A stretch of DNA of 64,000 nt from Escherichia coli (lineage in GTDB: Bacteria; Pseudomonadota; Gammaproteobacteria; Enterobacterales; Enterobacteriaceae). Below are positions 60,715 to 60,731 of the stretch, piece by piece. Numbering within the stretch: position 1 is the stretch's first letter; the number at the start of each line of letters is the position of its first letter. The stretch is taken from NCBI RefSeq assembly GCF_044324875.1, contig NZ_CP172185.1; one strand, 5' to 3'. Below the pieces are notes generated by a model that was not told where the DNA came from, did not search any database, and was given only the letters and a program-made list of their open reading frames with translations. The translations under genes were made by a program, and so were the position numbers.

Positions 60715-60731
60715 GTATTAACTATTAATAC
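60715..60731. promoter_or_regulatory. Candidate operator palindrome for TA autoregulation
   Basis: gtattaa cta ttaatac inverted repeat, 14-30 bp upstream of the antitoxin start codon. Confidence 0.45.

Follow-up and report, generated by a model that had tools for sequence, protein, structure and literature searches.

The 19-bp perfect palindrome at positions 60714-60732 of the window (the whole 64,000-nucleotide stretch of Escherichia coli DNA analysed here) is very probably the ParD/ParDE autoregulatory operator of a chromosomal parDE cassette, as judged from sequence. Comparison of related loci and protein homology support this reading, and it is from these lines of evidence that we infer the binding of ParD itself. 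Control circuits of this kind are well known; the arrangement is a textbook one and leaves the understanding of toxin-antitoxin (TA) autoregulation unaltered, the only mildly new angles being an operator variant, one symmetric base pair different, that co-varies with the DNA-reading strand of ParD, and a simpler, two-dimer architecture than in V. cholerae. A literature search found no paper on this parDE locus and no binding or expression experiment for the locus or its close relatives. The comparison supplies a defined operator with invariant positions and a putative natural specificity variant, from which EMSA, footprinting and reporter experiments can be designed directly.

The window is 100% identical to E. 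coli 042. In E. coli K-12 the site is empty: where K-12 has a 66-bp yajD-secF spacer, 042 has approximately 690 bp in its stead, and the cassette (window 60165-60851) begins at the base right after the secF stop codon, with no direct repeats seen to flank it. Because the cassette replaces the K-12 spacer, the palindrome belongs to the cassette rather than to the core genome. Of 5,426 complete E. coli genomes, 426 (approximately 8%) carry the cassette, among them O157:H7, CE10 and 042; strain 042 is an EAEC and CE10 a meningitis strain. Between secF and yajD the RefSeq annotation places a ParD-family antitoxin and a RelE/ParE toxin, in agreement with the Pfam matches. The features of the cassette other than its promoter are as follows.

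60185-60466, minus strand: parE, 93-aa toxin and presumed co-repressor, GTG start at 60466 (PF05016, E 6.9e-14; RefSeq WP_000277485.1)
60459-60701, minus strand: parD, 80-aa RHH antitoxin and presumed repressor (PF03693, E 1.7e-22; RefSeq WP_001226938.1)
60709-60712, minus strand: Shine-Dalgarno (SD) sequence GGAG, 7 nt before the parD ATG, read from the sequence
60714-60732, minus strand: candidate ParD/ParDE operator, 19-bp perfect palindrome TGTATTAA-TAG-TTAATACA, found by inverted-repeat search and conserved in 20 lineages
60714-60721, minus strand: SD-proximal arm TTAATACA, the outermost base of which (60714) is altered in the O157:H7/CEC01302 allele, giving 7+3+7
60722-60724, minus strand: central triplet TAG, asymmetric; TAG, CAG, CTA, TAA or TTA in relatives
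60725-60732, minus strand: promoter-proximal arm TGTATTAA, in which positions 2 (G), 3 (T) and 5 (T) are invariant in 20/20 lineages
60793-60828, minus strand: terminator-like hairpin after secF with flanking A and T runs, 15-nt arms, 87% complementary

The earlier note, made from the letters alone, had described the gene downstream of the repeat as an RHH antitoxin, and the PF03693 match bears this out: ParD scores 80 bits in the Pfam scan against a cut-off of 21, with a weak match to RHH_1 also, and PF03693 is the sole ParD-type family that it matches. ParE scores 52.6 bits against the PF05016 cut-off of 23. Both proteins therefore exceed the curated Pfam thresholds, and with antitoxin preceding toxin and the two genes overlapping, they qualify as a ParD/ParE pair. 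The nearest PDB entry to ParD is Vibrio cholerae ParD2 (VcParD2; 7B22/7R5A, E 2.9e-19), to which residues 1-69 align, and PDB relatives of ParE are 7YCS, 8C24 and 3KXE. The parD stop and the parE GTG overlap by 8 nt at 60459-60466 (GTGTATAA), which suggests translational coupling; the program-made list of open reading frames has a longer parE, of 104 aa, that starts at a GTG further upstream. A purine-rich SD is found at the equivalent place in every relative compared. In E. coli a GATC (Dam) site overlaps the parD SD (60705-60712, GGAGATCG), and this site is not conserved in other genera. The hairpin at 60793-60828 has the form of a terminator that would separate parDE from secDF read-through, and a strict terminator scan made no call there.

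On the plus strand, positions 60715-60731 read gtattaa-cta-ttaatac, the 7+3+7 core that the earlier note had put forward as a candidate TA operator. The sequence is as claimed, and the perfect repeat is in fact one base longer on each side, at 8+3+8 (TGTATTAA-CTA-TTAATACA, 60714-60732). Its placement 14-30 nt upstream of the antitoxin ATG proved right for the core, the parD ATG being 60701-60699 on the minus strand, and the full repeat lies 13-31 nt upstream; the neighbouring ggagat is the GGAG(AT) at 60712-60707, which directly adjoins the repeat. On the minus strand the order is TTGGTT-(18 nt)-TATACT-t-TGTATTAATAGTTAATACA-t-GGAG-atcgctt-ATG. The candidate operator reading gains support from conservation in approximately 20 lineages, from the position of promoters in relatives and from the VcParD2 precedent, all considered below.

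When the 150-nt, 38% GC intergenic region was shuffled, a perfect repeat with 8-nt arms and a spacer of 0-6 nt arose in 1.3% of cases, and one with 7-nt arms in 4.7%. The 64-kb window holds 25 perfect repeats with 8-nt arms and 0-6 nt spacers, and the motif itself, at three or fewer mismatches, has one occurrence there where 0.27 would be expected. Such figures from a single sequence are only suggestive, and the case for an operator consequently rests on comparison with related loci. Within E. coli, the 7+3+7 core is unchanged across the four alleles examined; in the O157:H7 allele only the outermost pair of the repeat is altered (60714, T to C), and the remaining allelic substitutions fall at 60742, at 60749 and in the stretch from terminator to promoter. 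Position 60742 is G in 042 (CTGGCA, minus strand) and A in O157:H7, CE10 and CREC-544 (CTGACA, a 5/6 match to -35); in CE10 part of the DNA that separates the secF terminator from the promoter is rewritten (60765-60790).

Relatives of ParD with 59-88% identity were drawn from one genome per species, from contigs with selected homologues and from plasmids, giving 20 lineages for comparison (ParD identity 59-100%). The genera are Escherichia, Salmonella, Enterobacter, Pantoea, Erwinia, Xenorhabdus, Photorhabdus, Yokenella, Shimwellia, Yersinia, Serratia, Morganella, Edaphovirga, Vibrio, Acinetobacter and Providencia; the S. microhaemolytica and Vibrio sites were placed in the 20-lineage listing by pattern anchoring. 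These loci lie on chromosomes and plasmids in unrelated contexts, and each of the 20 lineages carries a 19-mer of this design 28-32 nt upstream of the parD ATG, although the more distal upstream DNA of different groups is unrelated. Most arm positions carry 1.2-1.7 bits of information, compared with 0.1-0.7 bits in the 30 nt upstream. Among shuffled 60-mers 0.08% contain a perfect 8/8 symmetric 19-mer, compared with 9 of the 17 lineages scored (11 of 20 in the full listing); 94.4% of arm cells are complementary, a share that falls to 27-46% in registers slid by 1-3 columns. Upstream DNA is nearly identical within group A (Enterobacter, Pantoea, Erwinia and a 'Pseudomonas' megaplasmid) and within group B (Shimwellia, Rouxiella, Serratia, Yersinia, Pectobacterium and a Citrobacter plasmid), probably reflecting the same mobile element in each, so that truly independent lineages number fewer than 20. 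In Photorhabdus and X. doucetiae the orientation of the central triplet is inverted and the arms are unchanged, as expected for a site read by a two-fold symmetric protein. One Vibrio locus (L066, 601-1119) has a parE cut to 60 aa and detached from parD, and a degenerate operator (AGTGTGAATAATTAACACA); it may be a decaying module.

Variation within the arms is concerted. Arm position 4 and its partner (columns 12 and 24) are A:T in nine lineages, G:C in nine and mixed in two, and one clade has altered both arms together, from GTAT..ATAC to GTGT..ACAC, with its ParD N-terminal strand altered too. It is through the N-terminal strand that RHH proteins read DNA. Protein and operator types are distributed as follows.

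ParD N-terminus MRKIT(S/T)(V/I)S: operator TGTATTAA-N3-TTAATACA in 9/9 lineages
ParD N-terminus M(A/S/G)RTTSVTI: operator TGTGTT(A/G)A-N3-TTAACACA in 9/11 lineages
ParD N-terminus M(A/S/G)RTTSVTI: hybrid operator, left arm GTAT and right arm ACAC, in 2/11 lineages

It is possible, though doubtful, that these represent two operator specificity classes one symmetric base pair apart (TGTATTAA..TTAATACA versus TGTGTTAA..TTAACACA), co-varying with R2-K3-I4..S8 versus A2-R3-T4..T8 of ParD; the correlation of protein and operator rests on essentially one evolutionary split and is thus suggestive rather than statistical. If true, this would be a minimal natural case of co-evolution between repressor and operator, and if the change re-targets the repressor, the autoregulation of co-resident chromosomal and plasmid parDE paralogues would be insulated. 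The hybrid operators belong to Enterobacteriaceae BIT-l23 (L072) and Acinetobacter towneri (L067), both with RTTS-type ParD; they could be intermediates of a switch, or arm position 4 could be read loosely.

The palindrome also has a consistent relation to the predicted promoter, the elements of which in 042 are these.

60758-60763, minus strand: predicted -35 hexamer TTGGTT, 18-nt spacer, proposed from the sequence and because its position matches that of TTGGCA in Salmonella
60734-60739, minus strand: predicted -10 hexamer TATACT, 1 nt upstream of the palindrome, read from the sequence
60725-60729, minus strand: predicted zone of transcription start within the palindrome, 5-9 nt past the -10, from whose position it is deduced

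TTGGTT-18-TATACT is conserved in the four E. coli alleles examined. A consensus promoter and terminator scan of 60100-60950 in 042 returned no calls, the 042 -35 matching at only 3/6 positions. The same kind of scan called promoters in five relatives, three of them with 11/12 matches to consensus: TTGACA-17-TATCAT in L070 and L009 and TTGACA-17-TATAGT in L071, each with 0 nt between the -10 and the palindrome; TTGGCA-17-TACCAT, at 1 nt, in the Salmonella lineage L062, which has the same operator as 042; and TTGATT-17-TAAAAT, at 3 nt, in L079. Since the -10 hexamers end 0-3 nt before the palindrome, transcription should begin inside it. With a start at 60725-60729 the site would run from approximately -5 to +14, leaving only one arm in the mRNA, and its occupancy right after the -10 would block initiation. 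The properties of an operator are found together at this locus: an adjacent antitoxin with a DNA-binding domain (PF03693), two-fold symmetry (a perfect 8+3+8, with symmetry kept in 20 lineages), conservation together with the cassette in orthologous loci and, by prediction only, a location in the TA promoter region.

Proximity to the promoter raises the alternative that the block is conserved as core promoter DNA, with a -10 or discriminator in TATTAAT/TAATAG, or as the site of a host factor, and not as a ParD site. We regard this as improbable. The -10 of V. cholerae parDE2 does lie inside its palindrome (counted on the -60..+91 fragment, PMC10776004), group A permits by eye a reading of TTGAGC-16-TATTAA, and most E. 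coli alleles carry CTGACA at 60742-60747, a possible -35 for a -10 inside the repeat. Core promoter elements, however, are not two-fold symmetric, and would neither alter both arms together nor tolerate an inverted centre, and of the two key bases, A2 and T6, one or the other is missing from the best -10 candidates within the repeat. A host factor sits poorly with a site that travels with the cassette through many genera and contexts, which points instead to a factor encoded by the cassette. Promoter function is moreover compatible with the operator explanation, as operators often overlap promoter elements.

Alternatively, the repeat might act in mRNA, as a stem-loop in the parDE 5'UTR upstream of the SD that modulates translation or stability; this we consider highly improbable. 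An RNA helix would also accommodate the double change from A:U to G:C and the four G:U-compatible cells, and the 19-mer taken alone has a lower folding energy than shuffled versions of it (-3.4 kcal/mol, z -2.9). Within the UTR, however, the hairpin is weak (-4.0 kcal/mol, z -0.84, with 41 of 200 shuffles folding as well), it excludes the SD, and the 14 asymmetric cells comprise nine non-pairs and five wobbles, so that wobble pairs are not enriched. In five lineages the -10 ends 0-3 nt short of the palindrome, which should put the first transcribed base in the left arm or the centre and leave the RNA unable to form the helix.

A functionless chance palindrome in AT-rich intergenic DNA, which the frequency of 8-nt-arm repeats in intergenic shuffles and across the window might suggest, is for practical purposes refuted by recurrence of the same design at the same offset in approximately 20 related loci with unrelated flanks, and by the excess of perfect 8/8 repeats over shuffled 60-mers. 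Several other identities were considered and rejected. A LexA site has the form CTGT-N8-ACAG and a CRP site TGTGA-N6-TCACA, and the spacing, judged by eye, fits neither; an IHF-like match was seen by eye only in group B. A recombination or cassette-end site was set aside, the repeat lying approximately 120 nt inside the boundary, at a distance that is constant from the ATG but not from the ends of the cassette.

The operator reading can be set beside characterized systems. RHH proteins form dimers, each of which inserts a two-stranded beta-sheet into one major groove, and Arc, CopG and FitAB bind (pseudo-)palindromic operators as two RHH dimers, one per half-site, overlapping the promoter. These three belong to protein families different from that of 042 ParD. 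The ParD of RK2/RP4 is the namesake RHH antitoxin, which represses PparDE, and probably belongs to a different Pfam family from 042 ParD. The outer boxes of the 042 site, GTAT and ATAC, are 13 bp apart centre to centre, unlike the spacing of CopG (TGCA boxes 5 bp apart) or FitAB (sites approximately 15 bp apart), as these are cited in PMC10776004 and PMC10899793. Mycobacterium tuberculosis ParDE1 (PDB 8C24) resembles the 042 system in being a PF03693/PF05016 pair, and is, unlike VcParD2, much more distant from 042 ParD (E 3.3e-10). ParDE1 exerts negative autoregulation through the RHH domain and requires both ParD1 and ParE1 for it, and a ParD tetramer was modelled on bent DNA (PMC10899793).

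The closest precedent is V. cholerae parDE2. VcParD2 shares PF03693 with 042 ParD, with 38 of 69 aligned residues identical (counted by hand), and the overlapping parD-parE layout is the same as in 042. DNase I footprinting placed the ParD2 operator at -21..+13 of its own promoter, where three GGTA / GTA(C/T) boxes each take one RHH dimer; ParD2 by itself is a poor binder, the best binding is that of a 6:2 ParD2:ParE2 complex, and surplus ParE2 frees the DNA (PMC10776004). That operator extends across the -10, the transcription start and sequence just before a ATGGAGAT SD block, which the 042 leader shares, as it does GTAT-type boxes; in V. cholerae such short GTA(C/T)-like boxes are read by RHH beta-sheets. 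The exact boxes differ, those of V. cholerae consisting of an imperfect ATACC-N7-GGTAC at approximately -19..-3 and a third box, GGTAT, at +4..+8. In 042 a lone perfect 8+3+8 palindrome follows the -10 instead of enclosing it, and neither GGTA nor TACC occurs between 60702 and 60770, so that a triple-box arrangement of the VcParDE2 type is absent from this interval. The N-terminal strand likewise reads MAKNTSITL in V. cholerae and MRKITSVSV in 042. Two candidates for a third box in 042 were rejected: an ATAC 7 bp upstream sits inside the -10 hexamer, and a GATC 10 bp downstream overlaps the SD, and neither is conserved. By analogy, the 042 operator would work like that of V. cholerae without sharing its architecture. 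Because boxes and layout differ, the V. cholerae stoichiometry is not transferable to 042, and a single two-arm palindrome would imply a complex with two ParD dimers, against the three of the 6:2 complex.

The mechanism we propose is drawn largely from these analogies. Two ParD dimers, one on each 8-bp arm (TGTATTAA in the promoter-proximal case), would fill the 19-bp site; as in other RHH repressors, each arm would probably be read by one dimer rather than by one monomer. With the site filled only 1 nt past the predicted -10, RNA polymerase would be stopped at initiation. On the model of V. cholerae ParDE2 and M. tuberculosis ParDE1, binding by ParD alone is probably weak, and effective repression would come from a complex with ParE in which the dimers are tied together; surplus toxin would remodel this complex and lift repression. 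It is in this way that we infer the stoichiometry, the role of ParE, and the promoter and transcription start in 042. With a two-arm operator one could ask whether ratio sensing as modelled for V. cholerae ParDE2, with its three boxes and 6:2 complex, holds at such simpler sites.

Palindromes were also seen outside the 042 clade. VcParD2-like relatives from alpha- and gammaproteobacteria (L018-L028) have ATACC-N7-GGTAT upstream of parD, and some of them (L024, L027) add a third GGTA approximately 10 bp further downstream, a layout shared with the footprinted operator of V. cholerae. A delta-proteobacterial ParD subfamily (L029-L055, N-terminus MNISLTPQLE) carries ATAACAAAgTTTGTTAT and a third TGTTAT: the palindrome ATAACAAA-g-TTTGTTAT is perfect, TGTTAT lies approximately 10 bp downstream, and the whole occupies approximately -60 to -15 from the parD ATG. 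This layout mirrors the palindrome-plus-third-box of V. cholerae, with entirely different bases. Taken with the 042 clade, a palindrome of approximately 17 bp before the SD is thus present in three sampled ParD subfamilies.
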